DNA from: Schmidtea nova
Taxonomy: Eukaryota
DNA: 64,000 nt
Reading direction: 5' to 3'
Assembly: GCA_044892505.1 (NCBI GenBank)
Contig: CM097883.1
Coordinates: 160,642,001 to 160,706,000 of the forward strand
Shown: in pieces, positions 12,980 to 56,058 of the stretch
Numbering within the stretch: position 1 is the first letter of the stretch
Layout: the number at the start of each line of letters is the position of its first letter
Program-made: the position numbers and the translations under genes
Notes under the pieces: generated by a model
Database searches by the model: none
Told to the model about the DNA's origin: nothing
The model's input: only the letters and a program-made list of their open reading frames with translations

Positions 12980-14062
12980 TGTTCGGTTCGTATCAGTGGT
13001 TTACGACGAACACAGAAAGTATATATATTTATATATATTTGATTTGATTATCGGACTCCAAACGATAATCCGCTTATATAATTATAAATAAAATATATGT
13101 TTTAGGTTGTGTGTAAAGAAAAACAAGAACTAATTATTTTTTAATAAAATGTATTGTGAAATATGTATATCGATGTACAATATAATAAAATAGCTGCAAA
13201 AGCAAAAGTTAGAGAATCGGTTATACAAACCGTCCTAAGATGTTTAAGAACGAAAGCTGGACCTAAAAGGCTCAACAGCTCCGACTAACTGAAAGGACAC
13301 AAGATGAGGGGTTTCCCTGTAGTTTAACCGCGATAGTGACAACCCAGAATTGGTTGTCACTGTGACTTAATAATTTTCCCTTCTGATAATTTATTATGTA
13401 ATGACTTTACTGAAGGGGAAAAATAGTAATACAACTATTTCCCCGTGATCGATTTATAGAATTTTAAAAGAAACAAAACTAGAAGATTTACCAGCTAATA
13501 AAGATTTTTCCGATTTCGGGAAATTATCACAAATGAAATTCAAGCTAAGCTTCTCGTAATACTTCTGCCGTAAAATTAATTTCTCCAATTCACAAATTTG
13601 TCAAACTAAAATTCTAAAATTCACTTCGGTAAAATTTATGTTCTGTAAACACTTATGTTTCTCTCTCTACTTCTGTCAAAATTAATTTCTGTTTCAACTG
13701 ATTTTGCAATCAGTTTATATACAAATTATTTTCTCTCATGTAGGTCTAGACGACCACCTATTACTAACTACGTGTAGGTCGAAATTGACCTTACAAAATA
13801 TTACTTTTAAAGTAATTTATTATTACTATATATATCTTATTATTACTATTTAAATTTCTTATGTATTTATTTATTACTATATTTATTATATATTATTTAA
13901 TTATTACTATATTTAATCTATATTTATTTATAGTAATTATTTATTTACTATTACTATTTATCTATTTATTTATAGTAATTCTTAATTGCTATTTATATTT
14001 ATTTATTTACTTATAATATTTAATTACAAAAACCCGAGATCCCTTGATCTCGAACCCTAACA
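12980..14062 (-). repeat. 3' LTR (1083 bp)
   Basis: Direct repeat of 26876-27958. PPT is adjacent. Confidence 0.97.
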
Positions 14063-14357: not shown

Positions 14358-16394
14358 CTAGTTATCCTTTGCGAATAGGTTTTGAGCTGCTCTCTTGCGA
14401 ATATGCGCTTGCTCGTTCTTGATGCGATCTTCCACTATATCTGGTCTATAGCTGACCACCAATGTTTCGCGTGTTTCGACTTCCTTATATACCAAAGACG
14501 AAATCACGTATGATTTTCCGTTGGCCTCCAATACGCCATAGTAAGGGAAGTTTGAAACTGATGATTGGTGTACCGGTTTCCCGTCGTATTCTTTTATCCG
14601 AGGTACCCAATTTCTCTCTGGTCGCTGCCAAAAACTAGGGTCTTCATTGTCCAAATCCTGGGGTATCTTTGCTGAATTTCCCGTTCCAACGAAATCCCCT
14701 TCTCTTATAATAATAGGTTCGCCCTTAACCTCCGGAATCTGTTCCATATCGGGTGGGATGAATGCTGTTTCGATTAAATCTTTGTCTTCCGTCGAGATGG
14801 GATTTGGTACTTTCTTTTTGATCTTTAGATCTTGTAACCTTACAACAGGTTCTTGACTTTTCTTTGGGGGTGACTTCTCCACTGAAGTCAATTTTTTAAA
14901 AGTCTTAGTAACTTTTTCCAAGAGCTTGTTCTCTTTCTTTGGTGGATTTTCTGGCACGATCTTTGTAATTGTACGGCTGTCTCCGTGTAAAGTTAAACGC
15001 ATCTCTGTTTGCTCCTCACCCTCGCTTTCGCAGGTGGCGTAATCGTCTTCATCAGCTAAGGATATAGCTGGAGGGGATAGTGATTCTTCCTCAACTATCT
15101 TTTGTAATTTGGTTGATAATGGTTGTTCCTGGGGTAAGCTCTCAATAGCTTTCCTTTTACTCGTTTCTTGTGGCTGTATTGTATGAACCATTTTGACTTC
15201 TGATGTAATTGTCCCACTACGATTACCTGGGGTAATGTCATCTACCCAAACTTCTCTCAGTTTAAGGTAAATATTACGTGTCGTTTCCACGTCATTTTCC
15301 GTTTTCAGATCTGAACGGTTTAGTTCTTCTTTTTCGAGAATTGACTTTGATAAATACGCGAGTCGATAATGTCCGTTACATTTCTTTAGTTCTCTCGCTT
15401 CCAGGCATTTTGCTGCTCCTAGTTCTCTAATGCCCAAAACTCGTTGAGGGTGTAACTGGACTGCTTCCAAGAAATCGTTGACTTGGAGACCTATTAGGAT
15501 TTTCCCATCACATAATTTTCTAATACGGTCTGCGCAATCCTCTCCATCAAATTGTCCGATGATTTCTTTTTCGGTCATACCATGCGCGTGCGATTGGTAA
15601 TGTTTGACCTGGTTTCTGGGTGTAACCACCGTGTTTAGTATTAAATCACCACAGTAGTTTGCTATCGAAACAGCCACCAAAGCTGGCTTTAAATAATCTC
15701 GCAAAGTTGCGTAATGCGCTGCAACAAATATTGACAATCTATCTTCTTGATTGGGGTGCAGATTCATCCGAACAAAGGATTTGAATGATTTGAGATCGTT
15801 CTCATTCACATTATAGGTCCAGGCAGGTTCATTTTTCCACAATGATTGCACTGCCTTGCTAGGTTCCAAAATCTCTAATACCACAATAGTATTATATCCG
15901 TCACATTGGATGGAGATATTCTTTTCTCTGCCATCTCCGTTACTAATTTCTAGAGTTGATTCTGGTTGAAGTAGGATGGGTCCTGTGGCTCCTGCCATGA
16001 AGATTGTAAAGGGTTTATTGATCGCGTGAATCAGGAGATGGTGAGTAAATGTTGATCTGTTGAATTCCGCCATGTGTTCAGTCAACCGGGTGTTCTCACG
16101 GCTGGTGATTGTGACTATGCACATTTGTCTCTTAGGCGATCCGAGAAACTTAAAATTGTTCGGGATGCCGGTGCAGTGCCCGTAATACCAATAGCGACGA
16201 CCTTTCCGTGCCTCTGCGGATATCGCTTTTTCGATGTTTCGATAAATCAGTTTTTCCTTCTGTATTGTTTGCACATCGATAGTGCTATAACGCTGCTTGT
16301 ATTGTGACACTTGATGCTTCATATCTGAAAGAAAAATAATTAACGTTAATATCAGATATACTGATATGCCAATATTGGCTAAAAAGGAATGCAT
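14358..16394 (-). CDS. Accessory ORF2 of the LTR element (678 aa): degenerate AlkB-like domain, degenerate REX4/ISG20-like DEDDh exonuclease domain, charged low-complexity region
   Basis: Long open frame between the polyprotein and the 3' LTR. ALVAVSIANYCGDLILNTVVTPRNQVKHY..HG...KILIG...IRE..L aligns by eye to the REX4 fold. The true start may be the ATG after the splice-acceptor-like TTTCTTTCAG at ~16325. Confidence 0.8.
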   Translation of the reverse strand: MHSFLANIGISVYLILTLIIFLSDMKHQVSQYKQRYSTIDVQTIQKEKLIYRNIEKAISAEARKGRRYWYYGHCTGIPNNFKFLGSPKRQMCIVTITSRENTRLTEHMAEFNRSTFTHHLLIHAINKPFTIFMAGATGPILLQPESTLEISNGDGREKNISIQCDGYNTIVVLEILEPSKAVQSLWKNEPAWTYNVNENDLKSFKSFVRMNLHPNQEDRLSIFVAAHYATLRDYLKPALVAVSIANYCGDLILNTVVTPRNQVKHYQSHAHGMTEKEIIGQFDGEDCADRIRKLCDGKILIGLQVNDFLEAVQLHPQRVLGIRELGAAKCLEARELKKCNGHYRLAYLSKSILEKEELNRSDLKTENDVETTRNIYLKLREVWVDDITPGNRSGTITSEVKMVHTIQPQETSKRKAIESLPQEQPLSTKLQKIVEEESLSPPAISLADEDDYATCESEGEEQTEMRLTLHGDSRTITKIVPENPPKKENKLLEKVTKTFKKLTSVEKSPPKKSQEPVVRLQDLKIKKKVPNPISTEDKDLIETAFIPPDMEQIPEVKGEPIIIREGDFVGTGNSAKIPQDLDNEDPSFWQRPERNWVPRIKEYDGKPVHQSSVSNFPYYGVLEANGKSYVISSLVYKEVETRETLVVSYRPDIVEDRIKNEQAHIRKRAAQNLFAKDN

Positions 16395-16508
16395 AAATCT
16401 CGATTTACGGGATCTACTTATGCTGTAAGTTAATGCTACTCGGAGCTCAACAAGATTATAGATTTTAATATATATATAAATACAAATATGTGATTTTATC
16501 TGTAATTG

Positions 16509-19500
16509 TCATAATCTCGTCATCATAATCCCATCAACCGACTCAATAGCCTGGCTGAAGAATAATTTCATCCAAACTCCCATTGCTATCAATGTAGTGA
16601 TCATAGCTAATACTGCTGACGTAATAATCCATACCCCAACGGGTAATTTTCCCAAGTGAGAAATGGGGTTTACTTCATTAATTTCACACTGACAACTTTT
16701 AATATAGCTTTCTGTTGATACTGTTGGTTTTACCATTTTCAATCCTTTCAATCTCTGCCATATTGCAGGATGAATGACGTAACTCTCTTTCCGTATCAAG
16801 GATGTGACTGATTTCGTTGTCGTCGATGATTGTGGTAATTTCAAAGAGATTACTTCATAAAATACCTCATTCCATTCATCGACTCCGGGCTTTTGTTTAT
16901 TATTCATATAAGTGATATGAGCTTCCCACTCCACTGAGCTGTTCCACTTGAGATTTTGTTTCTCAATATCTTCATTTAGCCACAATTCTTGCACTATTTC
17001 CTTGTCGGAATGGATTTCTATCCTTACCCTATCCACTCCTTGTTTTGGTTGGCTAAAGGTAATCATACCTTGTTGGATATTTATTCTAACTTTCCTTTTG
17101 AAATCTGCTGTCTTCAGCTTCCATTGTGACTTTGAAAAATCTGACCATCGTCCAAACATAAAATGTTGAACAAGTATATCTAACAGATATTCCTTTTCTG
17201 CTCGTAAGTCCTTTATGACTTTCACTCTTGTGTTTGAATCCAATGTAAAATGGAAACAACGTCGTTCGCAAAACGAGAACTTGAATTTGGTATCATTTTC
17301 AGCTAATGATATTATCCTAAATTCCTGAAAAGATCTTCTGAATGCGAGATCTTGGATTTGAACCGCTGTTGGAACAAATGTCTTTACACAGGATATGAGG
17401 CAACTTATTATTACCAAAAATGTAACTGATTTTGGCACGCCTCTTGATCGTAATGGATATCTGTCTGAGACTGATTCTGACCCTTTATCCTCCTTTTTCT
17501 TAATCGGATCTTTCTCCGTGACCGCAACTTTCTTGCATCTGTTAGCATGTACCATTATTGGTTCAGCTTTTCTATTTGCTACTAATTGCAAGATTAAATT
17601 CGTGTCTGTGGTTCTCAAAACCTCATATGGTCCTTTGAAGTTTCTCATTAATTTAGGTGATAAGCCCTTTTTATTATAATGGCTTTCCAACATCACCTTG
17701 TCTCCAACTAACATGCCATGTCCTTTGGCTTTCTTATCATGATAATCTTTCGACGCTTCCTGACTGAATTTTATACTAAGACCTGCTTTTGTCCATGCTT
17801 CTTGCATTCTTTCTCTCATTTCCATGAGATAATCCTCTTGGTCTAAATACTGCGTTGCTTTTGGGAAAAACAACAAATCTATAGGCATTTTACTTTGCCT
17901 TAAATACATGAGATAGAACGGCGTTTGTCCCGTACCCTCATGAACAGCATTTCTGTATGCGAATAGGCATGATGGAATATGTATATCCCAATCCGTTTGC
18001 CCTGAATTTACGTATGATGCTAGCATATTTGCGAGCGTTCCGTTAAATCTCTCTACCAATCCGTCTGTTTGTGGATGGTATGGAGAGGTATTCAGTTTTA
18101 AAATGTCGAAATAATCATTTATTCCTTTTAACAGATTACTCATGAAATCTGCTCCTCTATCTGTAAGTAGTTTTGTAGGTACTCCATACCTAAAAACAAT
18201 TTGCTCTACGAAAATCCTGGCTATCGTATCTGCCTTGTGATTCGGTATCGGATAAGCCTCCGGCCATTTCGTCAAGTAATCGCAAAATACCAATATGTAT
18301 TTGTTACCACTATTTGATTCTTTGAATGGCCCTAAAACATCCATTGCCGTCATTTCCATCGGTGTGGATGGTACTGGCATTGGTTTCATTGGCACATGCG
18401 GTTTCTTCCCCGTATTTCTCCTGGTGATACAGATCTTACATGTCTGACACCATTCTTGTACGTCTTGTTTGATTGTCGGCCAGAAATATTTCTGCTTCAA
18501 CCTTGACAATGTTTTCCTGGAAGACAAATGCCCTCCCAGTGCTCCATCATGATATTGTAACATCAAGGCTTCCCGATATTTCTTAGGGACCATTATGACA
18601 TTATCCCTTACGTCTACATATTTGACTAATCCTTCTTCTAGAATAAATTTGTCTCGATTTTTCTCCCAATATTTATTAAATTCCGTCGGTATGAACTTTG
18701 CTTCTAAAGCCTGTCTGATTTGGTTTATCTCTTCATCCGATTGTTGTGCTGCCATTAAATCCGCGAGTCTGTTTGCTTCTCTTGTAAGTGCGAAGATTGT
18801 TCCTTCTAATCTTCCTTCTTTGACGTCTTCTGCTTCATCACCTTGGTCCATTCGAGAAAATGCATCTGCATTCCCATTTTGGTGTCCTTTACGGTAATGT
18901 ATTTCGATATCGTATGGCTGCAAGATCAATGCCCATCTAACCAATTTTGATGTATCCATAGTATGCTTTGTTAACCACTGTAATGGTCTATGATCCGTAT
19001 ACACAATGATCTTTCGACCCCATAAATATGTCCTGAATTGGTGTATAGCATACACAATTGCTAATGCTTCTAATTCGATAACTGCGTAATTCTTTTCATG
19101 TGGTTTTAATCCTCTGCTAGCATACGCTATTGCATATTCGTCTCCTAGGTCATCTCTTTGACCTAACACAGCACCAATACCCCGAGTGCTGGCGTCCGTC
19201 ATGACCAAAAATTGTTTCTCAAAATCTGGAAACCGTAATATAGGAGGTTCCACGAGCATCCTCTTTAGCATATCAAATGCTTCCTGATGTTCTTTTCCCC
19301 ATACAAATTTGACATTTTTGCCCTCTAATTGTGTCAGAGGAAATGCTATTGCCGAAAAGTTCCTGATGAACTTCCTGTAATATCCCACTAAGCCCAAAAA
19401 CCCTTTTATATGTTTGACTGTCTTTGGCTCTGGAAAATTCTTTGCTTTCTCAACATTTGCTGGATCTGGCTTTACTCCATCCTTCGAGATAATGTGACCG

Positions 19501-22500
19501 ACATAGACTACTTCTGATTCGGCCCATTTACATTTTGATGGTTTTACCTTAAGATTTGCATTAATTAACCTTTTGAATACGTCCTCTAAATGTTCTAAAT
19601 GCTTTTCCAAATCTGGAGAAAATACTATGATGTCATCTATGTATACCATTGCATGATGAACATCCATTAACATTAGATTCATTGCTCTTTGAAACGTTGC
19701 TGGCGCTCCTGTGAGACCAAATGGCATTACTGTATATTCGAAGTGTCCCAGGCTTGTAGAAAAAGCCGTAATTGGTATTGTCTCCTCTTTTAACTTGATT
19801 TGGTAAAATCCCTTCTGAGCATCCATCACTGAAAAATATTTTGAATTTCTCATACGACCGTAGATGTAATCCAGTAATGGTAATGGGTGACTATCCTTGC
19901 AAGTTGCTTCGTTTACCATTCGATAGTCGTTGCATAGTCGTACCGTTCCATCCTTTTTAGCCACTACTATCATTGGTGACTGGTATGGTGATTTACTATG
20001 CCTGATGATGTTATGTTTTAACATCAGTTTTACCTGCTTATCGACAGGTTCTTCCAAGCTAAACGGGATTCGATACGGTCTCAGCTTTATTGGTTTAATA
20101 TTGTTAAGAACAATTTCATGTTCCAACAAGTTCGTCTTTCCCAGATCATATTCGTGCTTGGCGAATACTTGATCATATTTTCTTAACAACATGTTTACTT
20201 GAATATTCTCTCTTCGTGAAAGAGCTTTACTATTTGCCGTTGGCGCATCATAGTACTCGATGTCTGGTTCTCTATTCTCTGCCTTCACTGTCAGGACAGA
20301 TCCCCCAATCGGTAATTGATCCGACTTTGATACTCTCCCTACTCTTGTATCTGGGTACAATTTTAATGGTTTTATATCTAAATTGGCTACCCGAATTGGT
20401 ATTCTGCCATTTTCAACATTACCAACGCTATGCGTAATTGGTAGATTATATTTTGCTGAAAACCTTTCATCTGGTTCGAATACAACTTCTCCTTCCAACT
20501 GTTCGCTAGTGGACACGAAACATACTGTTTCTGCTCTAGGTGGTATTATCATCGTATGGTCGATGAAAACTGTATCATCATTATAAACTTTTCTTTTCTT
20601 ACCGATTGATCTAACTAACAATCCGGTAGCACAGTCAAATACGACTCCTTTTAATCTTCTTAAAAGATCCATTCCTAGTAGACATTCCACTGGACAAGTT
20701 CTCATGACTATAATATCATGACGAAATTCTTGGTCACATAGCTTGATGTTACAAGCTAGAGTACCAATAATATTCAATGATGTGCCTGTAGCACCTGTTA
20801 ACGAAACTCTTGAGGTTTCCATTGATTCCAATTCTTTTTGATTTAATAGTGTTGCCTCTATGATAGTGCCGTCTGCTCCTGAATCTATCACTGCATTAAC
20901 TGTGTGTCTGTTTATTTTTATCTTTATCATGGGTTTCTTATCCAAGTTCACCCCATTTGCCATCAAAATAGTAGCATGCGTTATCCCGATGGTATTTGCT
21001 CTGAATTTCTCTGCTTCATCTTGTTCGGTATCGCTCAATTTTGGATTATATTCCTTGAATTTAGCTTTTATTGCTTCTAACGACTCGATAGGATACAGTT
21101 TCCCTTCATTTTCTAACGATAATGATATGCTTTTACCTGTTTCTCGAGCATCTTTGTCGAGAATTTGTTGATGTTTAGAAATGTACATTTTGTTTCTTTG
21201 AATTGTTAAAGCATAATTTAGTTTGCCCTCTCCTGATGTCTTTTGAAACTCTGGCGATTCCCCCTTTGGCGCTGTTGGTAAGCTTCTAAGATATGGTAAT
21301 TGCATATATCTTGGATTTCTTTTCAATCTAGGCGATGCTGTATTGATTGCAAATTTCTGGTCTGCACTATCGTATTCATCTTCTGAAATCATACTTTTGT
21401 CGAAAATCTGTTTTGTCGCTTCGTAAGGTGGTTGATAATCCCGATATTTCATTTTCCTTAATTGATGATTCGGTTTTTTATTGTAGTTTCTTTTTCGACT
21501 TCTACTTTGTCTCTGAACTGTATTAAGAGAGTCTCCAATACCTCCTCCTTCCGAATTGTTATCGTCCCGATAACTTGTATTACCCTCCATTTCGATTCCA
21601 ATAATCTCGTGTTTTACCAAGCTTCTCTGTTTGATTGTCTTTATTTCTTTACGATGATGTTTAAACAATGCAAATTCCGCACACATAGGACACAATCCTA
21701 GTATCAACTTCCAAGACCATCCACCGATTTTGAATATACTGTATGTGGAGATTAATTGTGTTATTATTAACTTTAGAATTACGAATATTGCATATATTCC
21801 TGAGCAGCCTGCCACGAAAATACCAAAATTGGTAAACCTTCCCCATATTTTCATCATCACATTTTTAGCTGCTTCTTTATAATGATCTGGACCGAATAAT
21901 AAATTGTAATCTGGTCTCATTTCGTTTGCTTGGTAAATTGTTCTTATGATTTCAGTGATACCTCTTTCTCTTACTTGAGGGAATAGCAATGTCTGTCTTG
22001 CCTCCTCAATGTCTGCTGAAGTGTAAATTCCTCCTTGTGATAATTCATCGAGTGATTTAAATTCCATGTTTTCCTCGAGTTTCGTGACTTCCAATGTTTC
22101 CACCTTTCTATTAGATGGTTTTCTGTCAGGTAATGAGATCCATCTATCATTTACCTTGTATAACGGTGATATTGCTGGATTGCAAATTGAAGGTTGAGGC
22201 TTTTGTTTTTCATCCAAAAGTCTCCTCGTAACTGGCATTACAAATCGTATTTTGTTTTGATATGACACTGGTAATTCTAGAGTACATTCGTTATACCGTG
22301 TTAATTGTACCTCTATGGGTTGACATTGATAGCTGTATATAGCTTCCCCCATAATTCTGCCAAACATTCCATCTTCTAGCAACATAGGTGTCACTAGATC
22401 CGGATTCACGATTGATATCGCTAACCGATTTCGAACTATTTCGCGATTTAGTTTGCAATCATTGAGTATTACTTCCTGATACATTTCCTGCATTTGTCCT

Positions 22501-25500
22501 TGCAGATCATGATATAAATAATCTATTTTATTATTTATATAGTTCGTGATTTTGATATCCTGGCTGTGAATATTCTTGGCTTTTTGGATAAATGTTTTTG
22601 ACAAATATAATCCTTTATAGTTGGTCTCGTACACCACTTTTCCGCATTTTGTCTTCTTATCTTTTCTGACAAATCTGATTGCATCTTTCTTATCTTCTGA
22701 TACTAATACTAGAGGTGTGATTTCCTCACTAATATCCTCTTTTTGCTGTTTGTTGATCCTTTTCAACGTCTTTTCTTTATCCCAAATTCTTTCTCTTTTG
22801 GGTAAATCTCGATACTTTGTCCCGTTCAACTTATGGAAATTAATTTTCTTTAGTAATGACAATTCGCAATGGTCTAGTATTTGATCGTATAATAATGTAA
22901 TGACCCCTGTTCTGCAGCTTCCAAATTTCGCAAGGCACTGAGGGTGTGCCATTAATCTACCTGATAATACATCGAACGTCCCTTCGTATTCTCTTAATTC
23001 GATTGAATAGTCCTCAATATCTACGACAAAACTTACCAACTCCGATCCGCGAGTTTTCTTTCTTCCCGTACAGGTACCATCTGATCCGATTGATCCTCCT
23101 CGTGTAATGGTTACTCCCAGTGTTTTTCCTACTTCCGCGGCGATGGTTACCTCGTTATCGATTCTTAAAGTACCTTTTCGAAAGGCGTCTAGACAATCCT
23201 CTGGCAATATGTTGACAGGTCTAGGTATTAGAGTGGCTGATAGAAAAGCAGTATAGCTGTGTGAACCACAATAATATTCAAATGTCGCTCTTTGGACTCT
23301 ACATTCTCTTATCTTAGTTCTGAAAAATTCACTTTCTTGGTAGACATAGTATTCGACCTTTTCTCCTGTTTGGACTTTCTCTGGATATGCCTCTTTGCAC
23401 TCAATTGCATCTACGAGCGAATATATCCGAGCTAACTTTGGATCACTGCAATCAAACGCTGTCATTGTGTTTGTCTGTTTCATTATCCCCATCATTACTA
23501 AAAACATTAATATCATATTTGTCATATTCCCCATTCCTCCATTTCCGAGGTGGTTGTTATTCATAGCCTCTTCCACAAATTCATATCGTGGTTTATGTTT
23601 CTCCTCTTCCCAGAAATTATTTTCACTCATCCACGTTCCGAGATAATGCTCCGTTATCTCCGTGATCTGGTCTATTTCTCGATTAATAAGCTTCTTCTCA
23701 TTGCCTGCGCGGGCTAAAGCATCTTGAATCAACATAGATAATGCTGTCAATATTTTTCCTTTAGATAACCCATCTTGTATGAGTGTCTCTAACATACTCT
23801 GTATCTCGTTTTGCGATACCCCTTTAGGTAATCTCCTCATAGTCTTCGCGATTGACTGTGTCACTTTATCCACTTGAATTCCTTTAATCCGAGTGATCTG
23901 CCATTCTGGCTTTAATATTCCTATGATCTGTTTTAATCTCTTCCATGTCAGAGATTTTTCTGGTATATGCACACCTTCGTCTCTCATATCAACATCCCTG
24001 GCTATTCCTGACAGGGTTTTCATCTGAACCTGTTTAATGGTTTCTTGATTTAATTGCTCCGTTGGTGGAGGTTTCATTTGATCTTTCCTAGGTCTTCCTC
24101 GTCTATCTTTCTTTGTCTGCCATGCTGGCCTGATAGTTTCTACCGCCTGAGAAGTTGAAGCTCCCACGTTAGTTTCCTCATTATTGAGTCTGATTTCCTC
24201 TTCTCCGTGATTATCGGCATCGATATCTACATTAAATGGTTGTGTTTCGACGTTACCAGTGACCATTTCATCTGGTAACCGTAATGCTGACCATTGAGAT
24301 TCAGGTGGCTCTACGGGAATGATTGCTACCGTTGTTGTTTCAAAAGGTAGACATCCCACATCTACTAAATATTCATCATCATCTACTTGCCCTCCATGAA
24401 TCATAATCAAGAATATACCGGTAGTCTGCCCAGTATCTATTAAATCCTTTCTCAACGTTATTACTTTGCTAAAACAACGATATAACCTCGTCATGGGTTC
24501 TTTTCCTGATATTCGAATGTCTAAAGTTATCATGCCTTGTCGGTGTGCTTGATGACGTATTGCTGTTCCATTTTTCCTCATTAACATTTTTATTTCCGTT
24601 TGAAACGAACTAGTTTCCTTTACTACAGGTAGTAGAATAGGAATTATACTCTCCAATGATTCTACTGGTATGCGCAATACCAACATCCAGTCTAATATTT
24701 CCTTGATTGTTTCTCCATCCCTCGGAGATTTCTGCAACTCTATCTTCAGACGTTGCTCTATTTGTTGGACTTCCTCCAACTGTGCAATTTCCATTTGTGT
24801 GAGTAGAAACACACTGTCTTGATCCACTACTGGGACCGATATTCCTGTCAGTTTCGTTGTGAGTTTCGTTACCATTCCTGGTAATACACCATTTTGTAGT
24901 AGTGTTTCCCCAACTACTAACTTTTCTCCATATAAATAAAAATCATATCTATTATGTTTCAATTTCATCATTGTATCTGACAACTTGTCTGTTCGACATC
25001 TTACATTCATGTCGATGTTAAACTCCTGCTCCTGAGGAAGTTTTATGTTTAAATGCGAATCCTGAAGATCCCATTCATGCTCCATTGCAGTTCCTATCTT
25101 TCGTAGGATTTTATGTATGTCGCTATGATACCTTGGATCATCTTCGACCTGAGATATTAATTGTAATATCTTTCCAATTTCACTGTTCTTGATATCACCT
25201 TGTGATAATTTCTCTAATTCTCTAGTCAGTCTCTGCTGATACTCATATCTGGAATCCACCAGTTTTAAACATTTTGCTAGGGTATCTGACCCTTTCTTGG
25301 CCTTTGTTTCCTTGAACAAAGCCTGGTCGAACTCGCTCAGTATGGTACTCATACTGGGTTCGTCATCATTATCAGAATTTGTTTCTGATTCTATTACCTC
25401 ATGATTCTCGCTGCTGGAATCCATGGGTTCACTATTTCCTTGCTCATCTGTGTGAGCATCATGATTTTTCTCAGCTGAAATCATCAAAACTGTTCCTTGC

Positions 25501-26774
25501 CCAACTGTGTGAGCATCATCGCTTTCCTCAATGGGATTCATTATAACTGTTCCTCGCCCATCCATGTGAGCATGATTTTTCTCAGCTGAAATCATAAAAA
25601 CTGTCTCTTGCCCAACTGTGTGAGTCTCATTCTTTTCCTCTATTGTATTCATCAAAACTGTTCCTCGCTCATCTGTGTGAGCATGATTTTTCTCAGCTGA
25701 AATCATAAAAACTGTATCATCTCGATCCATTAGCCGTGCTAATCGATTTTTCTCCTCCTGGATTTCCATTTCCAGTTGTTGCAAATACGTCAATTCTTTA
25801 TCGTGATTGACCATGAACGTAGTTTTTGGCTTGCTGACATTACCACTATTGGTAGTCCTATTATTCGTATTATTACTCTGATTTTGAGGACACGACCTCA
25901 GAATATGCCCGAATTTTCCACATCCGTGACATTTTATCTTTCCTGATGAATTAACATCATCCCTTTTAATATTAAAATTCCCATTCGTTGGGAGATTCCT
26001 AACTCTACAAACTGAAGCAACATGCCCTCTGCGTTTGCATTTATCACACTGCAAGTTCGTGACTCTACAGTTCTCAACACTATGATTATTCATACCACAT
26101 TTAGTACACTGAATACTCCTACGAGTATCAGCTACCTTCTTACTGTGGCAATCTTTTGATATGTGCCCTTTCTTATGGCAGTTAAAACATTCAATGGCTG
26201 GCTTCTCATTATTTATCATAAATGATGTAGCTTTTTCTAAGCTGCTTTCGATTACGACAGCTTTTCTTGTTAATTCCCAAAAATCATCTCCCGTGTGGAG
26301 AATCAATGCATTTCTCATTACATTTGTGAATCCAGCTAATAATTGGTCTTTAACCATAGCTTTAGTTGCATCATTCCAGGTAGTTCTGAGCCCAAACGCT
26401 CTTTCGGCTAATAACAATAATTGGTAGGAAAATTCTCCTACATGTTCATTTGCATTCTGCTTCCTGTGATAAAATTGTTGTCGGAAAATTCTACTTGAAT
26501 CTCCCGGTAATATTCTAGCTGTTAGTGATTCTCTCATCTTTTCCCATGTAGCTGGTTTATCTGCTGCTGGTAACGCCATAATATCATTGTAGTTTTCCCT
26601 TGCCATACCCTTAAGGTAAATTGGCAGTCTTTGTATCATTATCGCATCTGGATACCCATAGGCCTTTGCCATCTGATAATATTCTGACATAAACTCCGGA
26701 AATTCCCCTGGATCTCCGCTAAATGCCTTGACAGGTAAAGCGGGATATCTAGCAAAAACATTTTCCTCAACCAT
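16509..26774 (-). CDS. Gag-glycoprotein-Pol polyprotein (3421 aa): Gag/4xCCHC, ubiquitin-like modules, chuvirus-like glycoprotein, aspartic protease, RT, RNase H, integrase, C-terminal FN3-like membrane protein
   Basis: Open frame. CX2CX4HX4C x4. Protease VIDSGA. RT motifs MPFGLTGAPATFQR and YIDDII. RNase H motifs TDAS, ELEALA and TDHRPL. Integrase HHCC, MDVLGP, TDRG, DGLVERFN and GPY. Confidence 0.97.
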   Translation of the reverse strand: MVEENVFARYPALPVKAFSGDPGEFPEFMSEYYQMAKAYGYPDAIMIQRLPIYLKGMARENYNDIMALPAADKPATWEKMRESLTARILPGDSSRIFRQQFYHRKQNANEHVGEFSYQLLLLAERAFGLRTTWNDATKAMVKDQLLAGFTNVMRNALILHTGDDFWELTRKAVVIESSLEKATSFMINNEKPAIECFNCHKKGHISKDCHSKKVADTRRSIQCTKCGMNNHSVENCRVTNLQCDKCKRRGHVASVCRVRNLPTNGNFNIKRDDVNSSGKIKCHGCGKFGHILRSCPQNQSNNTNNRTTNSGNVSKPKTTFMVNHDKELTYLQQLEMEIQEEKNRLARLMDRDDTVFMISAEKNHAHTDERGTVLMNTIEEKNETHTVGQETVFMISAEKNHAHMDGRGTVIMNPIEESDDAHTVGQGTVLMISAEKNHDAHTDEQGNSEPMDSSSENHEVIESETNSDNDDEPSMSTILSEFDQALFKETKAKKGSDTLAKCLKLVDSRYEYQQRLTRELEKLSQGDIKNSEIGKILQLISQVEDDPRYHSDIHKILRKIGTAMEHEWDLQDSHLNIKLPQEQEFNIDMNVRCRTDKLSDTMMKLKHNRYDFYLYGEKLVVGETLLQNGVLPGMVTKLTTKLTGISVPVVDQDSVFLLTQMEIAQLEEVQQIEQRLKIELQKSPRDGETIKEILDWMLVLRIPVESLESIIPILLPVVKETSSFQTEIKMLMRKNGTAIRHQAHRQGMITLDIRISGKEPMTRLYRCFSKVITLRKDLIDTGQTTGIFLIMIHGGQVDDDEYLVDVGCLPFETTTVAIIPVEPPESQWSALRLPDEMVTGNVETQPFNVDIDADNHGEEEIRLNNEETNVGASTSQAVETIRPAWQTKKDRRGRPRKDQMKPPPTEQLNQETIKQVQMKTLSGIARDVDMRDEGVHIPEKSLTWKRLKQIIGILKPEWQITRIKGIQVDKVTQSIAKTMRRLPKGVSQNEIQSMLETLIQDGLSKGKILTALSMLIQDALARAGNEKKLINREIDQITEITEHYLGTWMSENNFWEEEKHKPRYEFVEEAMNNNHLGNGGMGNMTNMILMFLVMMGIMKQTNTMTAFDCSDPKLARIYSLVDAIECKEAYPEKVQTGEKVEYYVYQESEFFRTKIRECRVQRATFEYYCGSHSYTAFLSATLIPRPVNILPEDCLDAFRKGTLRIDNEVTIAAEVGKTLGVTITRGGSIGSDGTCTGRKKTRGSELVSFVVDIEDYSIELREYEGTFDVLSGRLMAHPQCLAKFGSCRTGVITLLYDQILDHCELSLLKKINFHKLNGTKYRDLPKRERIWDKEKTLKRINKQQKEDISEEITPLVLVSEDKKDAIRFVRKDKKTKCGKVVYETNYKGLYLSKTFIQKAKNIHSQDIKITNYINNKIDYLYHDLQGQMQEMYQEVILNDCKLNREIVRNRLAISIVNPDLVTPMLLEDGMFGRIMGEAIYSYQCQPIEVQLTRYNECTLELPVSYQNKIRFVMPVTRRLLDEKQKPQPSICNPAISPLYKVNDRWISLPDRKPSNRKVETLEVTKLEENMEFKSLDELSQGGIYTSADIEEARQTLLFPQVRERGITEIIRTIYQANEMRPDYNLLFGPDHYKEAAKNVMMKIWGRFTNFGIFVAGCSGIYAIFVILKLIITQLISTYSIFKIGGWSWKLILGLCPMCAEFALFKHHRKEIKTIKQRSLVKHEIIGIEMEGNTSYRDDNNSEGGGIGDSLNTVQRQSRSRKRNYNKKPNHQLRKMKYRDYQPPYEATKQIFDKSMISEDEYDSADQKFAINTASPRLKRNPRYMQLPYLRSLPTAPKGESPEFQKTSGEGKLNYALTIQRNKMYISKHQQILDKDARETGKSISLSLENEGKLYPIESLEAIKAKFKEYNPKLSDTEQDEAEKFRANTIGITHATILMANGVNLDKKPMIKIKINRHTVNAVIDSGADGTIIEATLLNQKELESMETSRVSLTGATGTSLNIIGTLACNIKLCDQEFRHDIIVMRTCPVECLLGMDLLRRLKGVVFDCATGLLVRSIGKKRKVYNDDTVFIDHTMIIPPRAETVCFVSTSEQLEGEVVFEPDERFSAKYNLPITHSVGNVENGRIPIRVANLDIKPLKLYPDTRVGRVSKSDQLPIGGSVLTVKAENREPDIEYYDAPTANSKALSRRENIQVNMLLRKYDQVFAKHEYDLGKTNLLEHEIVLNNIKPIKLRPYRIPFSLEEPVDKQVKLMLKHNIIRHSKSPYQSPMIVVAKKDGTVRLCNDYRMVNEATCKDSHPLPLLDYIYGRMRNSKYFSVMDAQKGFYQIKLKEETIPITAFSTSLGHFEYTVMPFGLTGAPATFQRAMNLMLMDVHHAMVYIDDIIVFSPDLEKHLEHLEDVFKRLINANLKVKPSKCKWAESEVVYVGHIISKDGVKPDPANVEKAKNFPEPKTVKHIKGFLGLVGYYRKFIRNFSAIAFPLTQLEGKNVKFVWGKEHQEAFDMLKRMLVEPPILRFPDFEKQFLVMTDASTRGIGAVLGQRDDLGDEYAIAYASRGLKPHEKNYAVIELEALAIVYAIHQFRTYLWGRKIIVYTDHRPLQWLTKHTMDTSKLVRWALILQPYDIEIHYRKGHQNGNADAFSRMDQGDEAEDVKEGRLEGTIFALTREANRLADLMAAQQSDEEINQIRQALEAKFIPTEFNKYWEKNRDKFILEEGLVKYVDVRDNVIMVPKKYREALMLQYHDGALGGHLSSRKTLSRLKQKYFWPTIKQDVQEWCQTCKICITRRNTGKKPHVPMKPMPVPSTPMEMTAMDVLGPFKESNSGNKYILVFCDYLTKWPEAYPIPNHKADTIARIFVEQIVFRYGVPTKLLTDRGADFMSNLLKGINDYFDILKLNTSPYHPQTDGLVERFNGTLANMLASYVNSGQTDWDIHIPSCLFAYRNAVHEGTGQTPFYLMYLRQSKMPIDLLFFPKATQYLDQEDYLMEMRERMQEAWTKAGLSIKFSQEASKDYHDKKAKGHGMLVGDKVMLESHYNKKGLSPKLMRNFKGPYEVLRTTDTNLILQLVANRKAEPIMVHANRCKKVAVTEKDPIKKKEDKGSESVSDRYPLRSRGVPKSVTFLVIISCLISCVKTFVPTAVQIQDLAFRRSFQEFRIISLAENDTKFKFSFCERRCFHFTLDSNTRVKVIKDLRAEKEYLLDILVQHFMFGRWSDFSKSQWKLKTADFKRKVRINIQQGMITFSQPKQGVDRVRIEIHSDKEIVQELWLNEDIEKQNLKWNSSVEWEAHITYMNNKQKPGVDEWNEVFYEVISLKLPQSSTTTKSVTSLIRKESYVIHPAIWQRLKGLKMVKPTVSTESYIKSCQCEINEVNPISHLGKLPVGVWIITSAVLAMITTLIAMGVWMKLFFSQAIESVDGIMMTRL
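17560..20930 (-). other. pol: Pol region: protease (~20620-20930), dUTPase-like linker (~20335-20575), RT (YIDD at 19632-19643), RNase H, integrase with GPY/F motif
   Basis: Canonical Ty3/Gypsy motifs in PR-RT-RH-IN order, with catalytic residues apparently intact. Confidence 0.95.
21660..23525 (-). other. env: Envelope glycoprotein domain, chuvirus (Jingchuvirales)-like class III fusion protein, inside the polyprotein
   Basis: Hydrophobic signal MILMFLVMMGIM, then TAFDC. Cys-rich ectodomain with YINNKIDYL, CKLNREIVRNRLAIS, GEAIYSYQCQPIEV, CTLELPV, FVMPVTRRL and GGIYT, which I recognise from chuvirus-type glycoproteins. TM segment FGIFVAGCSGIYAIFVILKLII. Confidence 0.8.
25888..26774 (-). other. 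gag: Gag region: capsid-like domain plus four CCHC zinc knuckles
   Basis: LPIYLKGMA...RKQNANEHVGEF gag-like motifs. Knuckles CFNCHKKGHISKDC, CTKCGMNNHSVENC, CDKCKRRGHVASVC and CHGCGKFGHILRSC. Confidence 0.9.
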
Positions 26775-26854: not shown

Positions 26855-26872
26855 ATCACGTCGGGCTCACCA
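26855..26872 (-). promoter_or_regulatory. Primer-binding site, tRNA-Trp type
   Basis: Minus strand TGGTGAGCCCGACGTGAT, 3 nt inside the 5' LTR. One mismatch from the canonical animal tRNA-Trp PBS TGGTGACCCCGACGTGAT. Confidence 0.88.
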
Positions 26873-26875
26873 AAA

Positions 26876-27958
26876 TGTTCGGTTCGTATCAGTGGTTTAC
26901 GACGAACACAGAAAGTATATATATTTATATATATTTGATTTGATTATCGGACTCCAAACGATAATCCGCTTATATAATTATAAATAAAATATATGTTTTA
27001 GGTTGTGTGTAAAGAAAAACAAGAACTAATTATTTTTTAATAAAATGTATTGTGAAATATGTATATCGATGTACAATATAATAAAATAGCTGCAAAAGCA
27101 AAAGTTAGAGAATCGGTTATACAAACCGTCCTAAGATGTTTAAGAACGAAAGCTGGACCTAAAAGGCTCAACAGCTCCGACTAACTGAAAGGACACAAGA
27201 TGAGGGGTTTCCCTGTAGTTTAACCGCGATAGTGACAACCCAGAATTGGTTGTCACTGTGACTTAATAATTTTCCCTTCTGATAATTTATTATGTAATGA
27301 CTTTACTGAAGGGGAAAAATAGTAATACAACTATTTCCCCGTGATCGATTTATAGAATTTTAAAAGAAACAAAACTAGAAGATTTACCAGCTAATAAAGA
27401 TTTTTCCGATTTCGGGAAATTATCACAAATGAAATTCAAGCTAAGCTTCTCGTAATACTTCTGCCGTAAAATTAATTTCTCCAATTCACAAATTTGTCAA
27501 ACTAAAATTCTAAAATTCACTTCGGTAAAATTTATGTTCTGTAAACACTTATGTTTCTCTCTCTACTTCTGTCAAAATTAATTTCTGTTTCAACTGATTT
27601 TGCAATCAGTTTATATACAAATTATTTTCTCTCATGTAGGTCTAGACGACCACCTATTACTAACTACGTGTAGGTCGAAATTGACCTTACAAAATATTAC
27701 TTTTAAAGTAATTTATTATTACTATATATATCTTATTATTACTATTTAAATTTCTTATGTATTTATTTATTACTATATTTATTATATATTATTTAATTAT
27801 TACTATATTTAATCTATATTTATTTATAGTAATTATTTATTTACTATTACTATTTATCTATTTATTTATAGTAATTCTTAATTGCTATTTATATTTATTT
27901 ATTTACTTATAATATTTAATTACAAAAACCCGAGATCCCTTGATCTCGAACCCTAACA
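26876..27958 (-). repeat. 5' LTR (1083 bp)
   Basis: Starts tgttcggttcg and ends gaaccctaaca on the + strand. Same length as 12980-14062, with no mismatch seen by eye. PBS is adjacent. Confidence 0.97.
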
Positions 27959-29059: not shown

Positions 29060-29899
29060 TAGTCGGCTCTTAGAAAAGGAAAAAAAAGTTTGGTATGGAG
29101 TTTCTTTGATGAAATAGGTAATAATATGGCCAATGCAAGCATTATTAATATATTATTTCTATGAATTTCAGACCAAAATATGGATAATTTATTTAATATA
29201 CTTTCTGATCAAGATTTTATTGTTATAGGAAAATTAATTTTCTTTTTAAGGCCATTCAAAGAAGTTACAATTATAATATCTTGTGAGAAATGTCACTGCG
29301 TCTTCTATATTACCTATGATAAATCAATTGAAAAAAAATTTTAAAAGAAGCAGCAACACCAATTTTTATTACAAATGATATTATAAAATCCTTTGCCACT
29401 AGTATGTGTTATGAATGCGAAATGATGCAAAAAATACGACGATTCTTTTATATTATTGTGTAAATGTTCATACATCGACCCAATATACAAATCTTTAAGA
29501 TTTTGCAGCAAAGAAGAAAAACTATCAATTAAAAATTCTATTAAAACGGAATTCGATGTTGTTCAACCAAATGTTGAAGGCGGTGTACGAAATTACCTAA
29601 TGGTGAAGAATCTATCATTGTGGGAAGGGTATGAGGAAGAAAATGAAATTTCAAGGAGTGAAATGAATTTATATGAGATTCATCCTGTTTCAGGAATCAT
29701 TGAAAATTCATCGACCTTCTGGAAAAATAACACAAGTAATTTTCCTGTATTTAGTAAGGTTGTTTTGAAATATTTATCAATCCCCGGCTCAAGTGCATCT
29801 TCCGAAAGAGCTTTTTCTTCAGCGGGATTCATAGTTGATGAATTGAGAAATAGGCTGACAACAGGAAATGTGGAAATACTTGTCTTTTTAAAAACATAA
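29060..29899 (+). pseudogene. hAT transposase remnant
   Basis: C-terminal dimerisation domain FWKNN...KYLSIPGSSASSERAFSSAG...RNRL. KSLVWSFF (BED-finger start) near 29085. Internally deleted. Confidence 0.85.
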
Positions 29900-54183: not shown

Positions 54184-56058
54184 CAGTAGTGTGTGAAATT
54201 TAGGGCACAAATATGTGCTAAAAATCTTATTTGCCCTAAATTTCGAAAAAAATTATTTCGTTTAAAATTACATAAAATCATTATTTAAAATCATTATTAT
54301 TTATGTATAAAAGATTTTTTTACTTTAAAAGGTGTAATTCATTAGCATGAATTGCAGTAAGACAATTCACAGAATAAATTCTAATTACATATATAAAAAT
54401 TTTATTAATTTATTATAAAAATGAAGCATGAACATGTTGCTTGATATTCGCTGTAAAAATCTGTTAGTTTCTTTATAATTGAATATAGCACTGCGCTTCC
54501 GATATATCGGAAATGATTTCATCGAGACAAAATAAGGATTCATCATAAATAGGATCATCTTTCACCACACAGTCTGGATCAATTAAAGTATCAAACAAAA
54601 CTTCATTTTCGTCTTTTTCTAAATCTGCATTCTGAAGCTTCTCTTTCATTTTTTCAAACTTTTCCCAACAATTCAAATACGTCCCTGGAAGAACCTTATT
54701 GATAGACTCTTATCCAGTAACATACTTCTAGCAATGTCAAAGCACTAAAACAAGATTTTATATCCGCACTATTATCAATTATCATATTTGTAACAAAGTT
54801 ATTGACATATTCAGAATAATTAGACTTAATATCGTTAATTATACCTAGATCTAGAGGTGGTAAGATTGATGTAGTATTAGGTGGCAAAAATAACAGTTTC
54901 ACGTTCGAAAATACACCAACCTCGTGACCTTTAAAATTATCGCATAATATTAAGATTTTTCTATCCTGTTTGATCATTTCGTCATTTAGATCGTTTATAT
55001 ATTTCAAAAAAATATCTTTGGTAAGCCACGAAGATGTGTTGTTAGCATATTTGAGGTTGTAATTATCTGGTTTCTCGTTTTTAAAAGCCCTGGGGTTTTT
55101 GCTTTTTCCTATGATTAATGGCGTAATCTCATCACCGTATTTATTAAAACACAATAAAAGAGTAATTCTTGTTTTATCGGTTTTTATACTTTTCTATGAT
55201 CTTCATCCCTCAGAATGTAACTTCTTCTACCAAAATTCTTGATATATAGACAAGTCTCATCTAAATTGTAAATATCTTTTTCATCATAATATTTCTTTAT
55301 AGCTTCAAATTCATCAAAAAAGTCAAGAATCTTGTCTGTCATAACAGATTTTGCCTCTCCGCAAAGGGATTTAAATGCCACATTATATCGCTTTTTAAAA
55401 CCTCTTATAAAGTATGGTGTGATGTTCACACGGCAAGATGGTGTTATTGATTTATATTAAGTTCCCCATTAAAACATTGCCACCTGCATTTCTAATCTGC
55501 CTGATACCATCAAGCATGTATTGATCAATGTTCAATAGCTTGATTTCTGCAGCTTTACATAAATTAAAAGTATCCAATGTTGGATCATCACTTTCCATGT
55601 TTAAAATCTCCTCCGAAGATTTGATTGCTGTTCTAATAACCTTTTGTGATACATTAAATTCTTTTTCGATGTCACACAAAGCCTTTTTATCCTTTTTATA
55701 TGCTTTGGCAATTTCTCTTTTTATTCTTTTGGTGTAAGTTTTTCTTTTTTTCTTATTTAAGTCCATAATGAAGATTGCCTTAAATTTTTAACAAAAATGG
55801 ATTTTTTATAGGTAAATATATACTCCATTAAATTTTAAGTAAAAAAATGCCTTAAATTTTTAACATGCCCTAAAATTTTATTATAAATCGCAGAATTGCT
55901 CGAAAATATTGCTTTTTAAAAATAAATAAACGATATATAAATTTATTTTATTCTTTTTGACATCATACAAAATTTTAATACTGAAATTCTTTTCTTACAA
56001 GATAAATGCCTTAAAAATTTAACATTTACAGTCTATTTTTGTGCCCTAAAATACCATG
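54184..56058 (-). mobile_element. pogo/Tigger-like DNA transposon, decayed
   Basis: TA-CAGTAG left end. tttagggcacaaa / tttgtgccctaaa inverted motifs. Contains a transposase pseudogene. Confidence 0.8.
54473..55766 (-). pseudogene. pogo/Tigger (CENP-B-like, DDE_1) transposase pseudogene
   Basis: N-terminal HTH, then GFKKRYNV...GEA, IYNLDETCL, IIGKSKNPRAF, LILCDNFKGH and FLPPNTTSILPPLDLGII, split by frameshifts. Confidence 0.9.

Follow-up and report, generated by a model that had tools for sequence, protein, structure and literature searches.

The window, a stretch of 64,000 nucleotides to which all positions refer, carries a retroelement on its minus strand (Table 1). Judged by its LTR features and its Pol order, the element is an intact Ty3/gypsy LTR retrotransposon (Metaviridae); its Pol has Pfam matches to RVT_1, RT_RNaseH and Integrase_H2C2, and its env is close to that of Smed_errantivirus_4. 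Of the hallmarks of this class it shows paired TG...CA LTRs, a 4 bp target-site duplication (TTTG) flanking the element, a primer-binding site, which we take to be tRNA-Trp-like, a polypurine tract and the order protease, reverse transcriptase, RNase H, integrase. As in Gag-Env-Pol errantiviruses, env lies between gag and pol, and a gB-like class III ectodomain is found between a signal sequence and a TM helix. The structure model of the glycoprotein (G) is confident, with a pLDDT of 85.9, and in structural comparison it matches herpesvirus gB proteins best (Foldseek E 2e-15).

Table 1. Features of the element, in their order along the coding strand; aa positions are those of the frame P0001
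Feature	Position	Strand	Remarks
5' LTR	26876..27958	(-)	1083 nt, TG...CA; primer-binding site follows
Primer-binding site	26855-26872	(-)	next to 5' LTR
Single open frame P0001	16509..26855	(-)	3448 aa, first Met aa 28; Gag-X-Env-Pol
Gag	25851..26774	(-)	capsid-like region and four CCHC knuckles
Bcl-2-like domain (weak match)	23610..23855	(-)	PF00452 E 0.074; position as in Burro
Internal signal sequence before glycoprotein	23469..23519	(-)	directly after weak Bcl-2-like domain
Class III (gB-like) fusion glycoprotein ectodomain, Monjiviricetes/chuvirus type	21840..23468	(-)	aa ~1130-1672; PF24664 E 4e-89
Glycoprotein TM helix	21765..21830	(-)	aa ~1676-1697; KD 2.28
Post-TM helices	21657..21764	(-)	aa 1698-1733; amphipathic, Cys-bearing; helical in model
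Glycoprotein tail / protease linker	20943..21656	(-)	aa 1734-1971, 238 aa; start predicted disordered
RQSRSRKR	21489-21512	(-)	aa 1782-1789
QPPY	21423-21434	(-)	aa 1808-1811
PTAP	21267..21278	(-)	aa 1860-1863; predicted TSG101-UEV ligand
LYPIESL (LYPx3L type)	21078..21098	(-)	aa 1920-1926; predicted ALIX V-domain ligand
Pol: protease, reverse transcriptase (YIDD), RNase H, integrase	18072..20942	(-)	in frame behind tail
Second signal-like segment after Pol	17373-17429	(-)	same frame
TM after second signal-like segment	16584-16640	(-)	same frame
ORF2	14358..16508	(-)	716 aa stop to stop; follows main frame
3' LTR	12980..14062	(-)	identical to 5' LTR, 1083 nt; polypurine tract precedes

The aspartic protease occupies aa 1972-2070 of P0001, and the frame's C-terminal end, past the integrase, holds a further predicted membrane protein. 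ORF2 is homologous to an ISG20-like DEDDh exonuclease ORF carried by a related family in the same genome (family B) but has lost the first acidic motif; the PF00452 match lies below the curated cut-off both in this element and in family B (E 1.7e-4). The family to which the element belongs (family A) is young and abundant: a search of its own genome gave at least 98 matches (97 of 6645 candidates were scored), at least 26 of them in frames of 3400 aa or more and with no stop in the match. Four sequencing runs of unrecorded kind cover the whole element, and none of the joints listed is readable as a splice; a spliced message that bypasses env or the tail is conceivable.

Motifs and topology of the glycoprotein tail

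The preliminary description had seen in this DNA a pair of late-domain motifs resembling that of HIV p6, placed in the glycoprotein tail; PTAP and LYPIESL are confirmed there in the minus-strand frame, between the TM helix of the glycoprotein and the aspartic protease. When the 238-aa linker is shuffled 200,000 times, P[ST]AP arises in 0.4% of the trials and a strict [LM]YPx[LI] or [LM]YPxxx[LI] arises in 1.6%, while only 0.008% (8 per 100,000) hold the two motifs together; with the tails of relatives enriched as well, the suggestion that the motifs cluster beyond chance is upheld. Two further stretches, YQPPY and RQSRSRKR, had been put forward as supporting signals, and of this proposal the location stands (RQSRSRKR reaches slightly past 21500) but the role does not. 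QPPYE is off the consensus of a PPxY late domain, the whole 3448-aa polyprotein holds no PPxY, and PPxY is not enriched in relatives; neither stretch was seen in the linkers of diverged families, and RQSRSRKR is also rejected as a conserved signal.

Gag contains no P[ST]AP, PPxY or hydrophobic-YP motif; it has only RYPAL, which was unseen in relatives, few of whose Gags are complete. The claim that budding-type signals are carried on the Env tail rather than on Gag is supported. The linker from aa 1846 to 1952 has no match in the PDB, and the modelled part of the tail, aa 1748-1780, has a pLDDT <50. A complex predicted for the 41 aa around LYPIESL and an ALIX V domain borrowed from another organism (P0158) scored 0.19, 0.57 and 0.13 against a mark of 0.34, values that speak neither for nor against binding.

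Within family A both motifs are intact in 30 of 30 copies, a sample made up of the top-scoring ones; the oldest copy examined (L067) has lost PTAP but also carries stops. Across the 30 copies the rest of the linker shows 37 non-synonymous vs 39 synonymous variants, and the TM and amphipathic part shows 1 vs 16; by its variant pattern, this latter part is under strong purifying selection.

Placement of the motifs in the cytosol depends on how often the chain crosses the membrane. It had been proposed that the linker is cytosolic, with a fully spanning hydrophobic stretch at 21660-21720 named as the case that would overturn this; hydropathy and hydrophobic moment instead give that stretch the pattern of an amphipathic helix. 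In an alignment of 91 proteins the first hydrophobic segment has a median best 19-aa hydropathy of 2.02, reaches 1.6 in 82 of 91 and is rich in K/R on its C-terminal side, while the second has a median of 1.26 and reaches 1.6 in 10 of 90 homologues; the hydrophobic moment of the second segment is 0.93-0.98 vs 0.54 for the TM, and it includes polar or charged positions. The second stretch is therefore unlikely to be a membrane span, and because it looks amphipathic the tail is likely cytosolic, with the post-TM helices likely lying on the cytosolic membrane face. The internal signal sequence matches in position the N-terminal signal peptide of short homologues, in which the first conserved Cys lies at residue 14-41 in 73 of 76. 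With a single span, the tail would likely be cytosolic together with the whole of Pol, as reverse transcription requires; the predicted placement of the tail thus favours what had been proposed.

Retention in relatives and enrichment across the glycoprotein family

The same genome holds further element families of like kind. Between family B and family A, identity is 42-44% over the C-terminal part of G and 32-39% over the protease. The family-B linker is ~100 aa shorter, and 34 of 35 usable copies have PTAP-x-YP-x-x-x-L in it (41 were examined, of which 6 are broken). Across five family-B representatives the motif residues are invariant, the spacer positions vary, and the upstream linker is identical at 18 of 55 columns. 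P0003, 48% identical in G, has a linker with PTAP and FYPTNEL. Both motifs are thus kept in family B and P0003 despite a different linker length and sequence, which is the outcome expected of conserved motifs on a variable background, and their retention across lineages 30-48% identical in G argues for selection. In family D, which has many copies with long open frames here, neither motif occurs in the linker or in those stretches of Gag and Pol that were read. A homologue search for longer proteins gave 3 matches, and a scan of metagenome contigs gave 55 pattern matches, none of them a confirmed relative.

For a family-wide test, the best 150 of 1435 matches from a search of 1.84 billion representatives were combined with earlier matches and four locus frames into 157 candidates. 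From these 37 were dropped (17 unmatched to the C-terminal part of G, 8 ending before the TM, 7 without a clear TM and 5 with tails <25 aa); three near-sister polyproteins and two over-long tails were also removed, and one misfiled protein was moved. The final sets hold 17 linkers from polyproteins and 98 free tails, and every sequence was tested against shuffles of itself (1000 and 300, respectively). Among the polyprotein lineages P[ST]AP occurs in 4 (0.07 expected), a hydrophobic-YP in 12 (1.14 expected) and hydrophobic-YP-x1-3-[LI] in 10 (0.40 expected), counts reached by 0 of 1000 shuffles. The free tails show P[ST]AP in 17 (0.86 expected, ~20-fold over composition-matched shuffles), hydrophobic-YP in 48 (3.85 expected), hydrophobic-YP-x1-3-[LI] in 37 (1.0 expected) and the strict [LM]YPx[LI] in 19 (0.12 expected), none of which was reached in 300 shuffles. 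Reversed and scrambled motifs stay at chance level in both sets, with PA[ST]P absent; PPxY occurs in 1 of 17 polyproteins and 4 of 98 free tails. Since shuffling ignores kinship, these counts describe a family trait, not many independent origins.

P[ST]AP is confined to the tail. The polyproteins contain 4 in 2,039 linker residues vs 0 in 29,215 other residues (ectodomain 8,118, Pol 14,289, upstream of G 6,808), and the free proteins 17 in 5,978 tail residues vs 0 in 50,760 ectodomain residues. The tails hold 78 YP sites; L, I, V or M precedes the Tyr in 59 of them, and L or I stands two residues after the Pro in 47, as in the short motif of ALIX ligands. By these patterns 5 of 17 polyprotein lineages, including family D, have neither motif, so the motifs are not universally needed; 44 of 98 free tails lack both as well.

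A quick tree took in 15 of the 17 polyproteins and 44 of the 90 free proteins that were eligible. It unites the polyprotein glycoproteins in one group (SH-aLRT 84), and motifs are found on both sides, polyprotein and free; families A, B and P0003, the holders of the full PTAP and YPx3L pair, form one clade (SH-aLRT 90) and may count as one origin. Twenty motif-bearing free proteins were looked up, of which 15 are unnamed and five are named, all chuvirus or chu-like glycoproteins: those of Fushun oxya chinensis chuvirus 1, Guangdong red-banded snake chuvirus-like virus, Soybean thrips chu-like virus 2 and Wufeng shrew chuvirus 2, and a Chuviridae sp. protein (Yichun mivirus cluster). Env genes of other retroelements may be part of the free set, as may remnants of endogenous viruses. 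Chuvirus (Jingchuvirales) glycoproteins share with the element the ectodomain, the TM and the amphipathic helices, and their motif-bearing tails have P[ST]AP and/or hydrophobic-YP-x-[LI]; they differ in being free type I proteins whose tail ends the chain, with mostly the short YPx[LI], and are 20-27% identical to the element's G. Because free tails of this type bear the same motifs, the motifs likely arrived with the captured viral glycoprotein gene.

Known systems and host ESCRT components

ESCRT recruitment from the cytosolic part of a membrane protein is seen in bluetongue virus NS3, which is not a fusogen. Gag-Env-Pol elements of nematodes were reportedly treated by Sacco et al. in 2022. 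In the host genome, single exons coding for an ALIX V domain and for TSG101-like UEV domains were identified, which match the human proteins at E 2e-18 (ALIX) and E 1e-26 (TSG101). Residues that we take to be ligand contacts are kept in these exons, namely Phe in the pocket of ALIX and Tyr and Met in the UEV domain; one further Tyr is Phe.

The type of element is already known. In the main text of PMC13524379, Chary and Hayashi describe errantiviruses of nematodes, bryozoans and flatworms with a gB-type env between gag and pol, and the flatworm members resemble this element in their Ty3/gypsy Pol, GAG-ENV-POL order, HSV/gB-type env and many near-identical copies. The closest one listed is Smed_errantivirus_4, whose env domain I agrees with P0001, from aa 1160 onward, at 67 of the first 100 positions (a count made by eye); family B is similar to Smed_errantivirus_1 of the same paper. 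Going by these nearest published relatives, the host is likely a planarian. That main text analyses ectodomains, not tails, and never mentions late domain, ESCRT, PTAP, budding or cytoplasmic. Burro/GYPSM1, a giant planarian gypsy element with env placed between gag and pol in one frame (Arkhipova and Yushenova, PMC6431247, section 7), is alike in having an env with mononegavirus glycoprotein matches and the order Gag, SUMO-like, BCL2, env, protease, of which the corresponding Pfam matches here and in family B are weak. Burro differs in size (~30 kb and 4873 aa vs 15 kb and 3448 aa), and its accessory ankyrin, BIR or MATH domains have no Pfam match in this element, which is therefore rejected as Burro proper; late domains go unmentioned in that section. 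Cer1 is not a parallel, as its extra ORF is placed after pol in the passage of PMC10309623 that concerns it.

Retroviral late domains (HIV-1 p6 with PTAP and LYPxnL, EIAV p9 with YPDL, and those of MLV, RSV and HERV-K) belong to the same two motif classes and, in the passages of PMC8402826 that treat them, show the same order just upstream of the protease. They are carried by Gag or matrix protein, whereas here they lie on the tail of a transmembrane fusogen and Gag has none; the relevant passages of PMC8402826 and PMC3705266 review late domains as features of Gag, matrix and capsid proteins. Budding of foamy virus depends on Env, but its PSAP is in Gag, according to the section of PMC3705266 on that virus. 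An artificial likeness is offered by the engineered EABR spike particles of PMC10121106, in which ESCRT is recruited from the cytosolic part of a membrane protein; as summarized in that paper, an ESCRT-binding region added to the spike tail suffices to drive budding. Full-text searching, with subscription journals mostly outside its range, found among the top matches listed no published report of late domains in these glycoprotein tails, and two papers naming both chuvirus and ESCRT draw no link between them in the passages concerned.

Readings of the tail motifs and their significance

The PTAP and LYPx3L motifs on the fusogen tail are considered probable ESCRT late domains, which would recruit TSG101 and ALIX to pinch off enveloped particles. 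The element would make one polyprotein, in keeping with the single frame observed; the internal signal sequence would guide the glycoprotein into the ER, where signal peptidase would cut Gag off, and the TM helix would stop transfer so that the tail, protease, reverse transcriptase and integrase stay in the cytosol. Gag would be anchored to the membrane by the signal segment and Pol by the glycoprotein. The putative late domains would sit just upstream of the protease, the place of p6 in HIV; once clustered where assembly takes place, the glycoprotein tails would draw in ESCRT-I and ALIX for scission, after which the protease would free Pol. Real particle release is what we infer from the motifs, and ESCRT sorting into endosomes or vesicles would fit them too.

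Such sorting is the substance of a rather unlikely reading that nevertheless accepts binding to ALIX and TSG101: the motifs would direct the glycoprotein, and Pol with it, into multivesicular bodies for turnover, surface removal or exosome-like release, not into virions. ALIX sorts receptors through YPx3L, family D multiplies without the motifs, and the enrichment points to ESCRT-type motifs but says nothing of their use by ESCRT; a host membrane protein is also reported to be recruited into vesicles in a late-domain-dependent manner (PMC9511404). Against this, the same motif pair marks the tails of exogenous chuvirus glycoproteins, the five named ones above, PTAP with YPxnL is described in part of PMC8402826 as the typical viral late-domain combination, and the element's Gag has no late domain of its own. 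It is very improbable that the Tyr motif is instead a tyrosine-based trafficking signal (YxxPhi, AP-2/AP-3 type) or the ligand of another adaptor, with PTAP incidental in proline-rich tails. Signals of the YxxPhi type are common in viral glycoprotein tails, YPxL fits the pattern and 45 of the 98 free tails have YPx-hydrophobic; YxxPhi without Pro, however, stays at chance (12 of 17 vs 9.6 expected in polyproteins, 19 of 98 vs 22.6 in free tails), the residue at Y+3 is E in this element, E in family B and N in P0003, all unfit for YxxPhi, and the strong excess of P[ST]AP, with PA[ST]P absent, speaks against an incidental PTAP.

Few chances are given to the idea that the motifs are a relic, either of donor virus budding or of an ancestral p6-like spacer of Gag, and are irrelevant because the element copies itself inside the cell. 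The lineages without motifs and the many changes tolerated by the rest of the linker fit such a relic, but the invariance of the motif residues in family B beside a divergent upstream linker, their retention across distant lineages and the near absence of non-synonymous variants in the TM and amphipathic part do not. That the matches are due to chance, or that the linker is lumenal because the second hydrophobic stretch crosses the membrane, is hardly credible and largely refuted: the motifs are short and the second stretch is TM-like in a minority of homologues, but the shuffles, the enrichment across the family and the amphipathic character of that stretch, with its polar and charged positions, oppose it, and a second span would place reverse transcriptase and integrase in the lumen.

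If the motifs are indeed late domains of the ESCRT type, what is new is not the element but their occurrence as a trait of chuvirus-type fusogen tails, carried into Gag-Env-Pol retroelements. Textbooks assign late domains to Gag and matrix proteins; here motifs of this type recur across the family on the tail of the fusogen, in retroelements and exogenous chuviruses alike. This bears on whether abundant, recently active elements form enveloped particles, and on the budding of chuvirus-like viruses, and it offers a reason for the repeated capture of one glycoprotein family by retrotransposons. A wider hypothesis, held tentatively and at somewhat less than even confidence, is that class III glycoproteins of chuvirus type are self-budding fusogens, which rely on late domains in the tail rather than on matrix or Gag, and that the captured gene gave Gag-Env-Pol retrotransposons entry, exit and a tether for Pol. 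To our knowledge chuviruses mostly have no recognised matrix protein; if true, the self-budding of their fusogens would explain how they bud. The flatworm elements would then be true infectious retroviruses with a flavivirus-like, membrane-threaded polyprotein, and the tethering of Pol to the envelope tail would be a new route of enzyme packaging.

Predicted products downstream of integrase

Past integrase, the frame of the window's Ty3/gypsy element (family A) continues into a second predicted membrane protein, in which a second signal-like segment is followed by a domain with two N-glycosylation sequons and then by a TM helix; the domain has no match in Pfam. This protein was also found in families B and D, which are diverged Gag-Env-Pol families of the same genome, and in the diverged related polyprotein P0003.

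A second ORF 3' of the polyprotein is common to families A, B, and D. The family-B version matches ISG20-like DEDDh exonucleases (E 4.5e-8) and aligns with that of the window at E 6e-28; because AAH replaces the DAE of family B, the window's version is likely inactive.

Features of the window and of related loci
Feature	Location	Strand
Second predicted membrane protein	window 16512-17438	(-)
Second ORF, family A	window 14358-16508	(-)
Second ORFs, family B/D loci	L091:3055-4533; L095:2462-3910; L093:1909-3828	
Weak SUMO/ubiquitin-like matches, family B	L044:3952-4938	
Region similar to it by eye	window 24276-25178	(-)
Gag-to-X spacer repeats	window 25403-25715	(-)
Weak Bcl-2-like domain/signal sequence	window 23469-23855	(-)
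hAT transposase fragment (PF05699)	window 29426-29899	(+)
DDE_1 transposase fragment (PF03184)	window 54696-55193	(-)
A32-like ATPase frame	L093:6857-7495	

Relatives and neighboring mobile elements

The related proteins P0004, P0005, and P0160 carry three to five protease-like copies and a C2H2 finger between the glycoprotein and RT, where P0160 (4844 aa) has ankyrin repeats as well. P0009, a Gag-Env-Pol-type polyprotein, is catalogued under a Flavobacteriaceae metagenome-assembled genome; it is most likely animal DNA binned together with the bacterium. The hAT and DDE_1 fragments have no relation to the late-domain motifs. A 213-aa frame with an A32-like P-loop ATPase (Pox_A32 match) adjoins a family-D element and is perhaps a Polinton-like fragment.

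The region between Gag and the glycoprotein

Between Gag and the Bcl-2-like domain, family B shows weak SUMO/ubiquitin-like matches; the window's region gave no such match, although it is similar by eye. The spacer between Gag and X (the region preceding Env) contains 57/111-nt short tandem repeats whose VFMISAEKNH-like units are possibly duplicated protease cleavage sites.

The internal signal sequence of the glycoprotein starts directly after a weak Bcl-2-like domain; Burro, the giant planarian gypsy elements, likewise has a Bcl-2-like domain at this position. One helix may serve as both Bcl-2 tail anchor and env signal sequence; if so, the product left would be a membrane-anchored Gag-Bcl-2.
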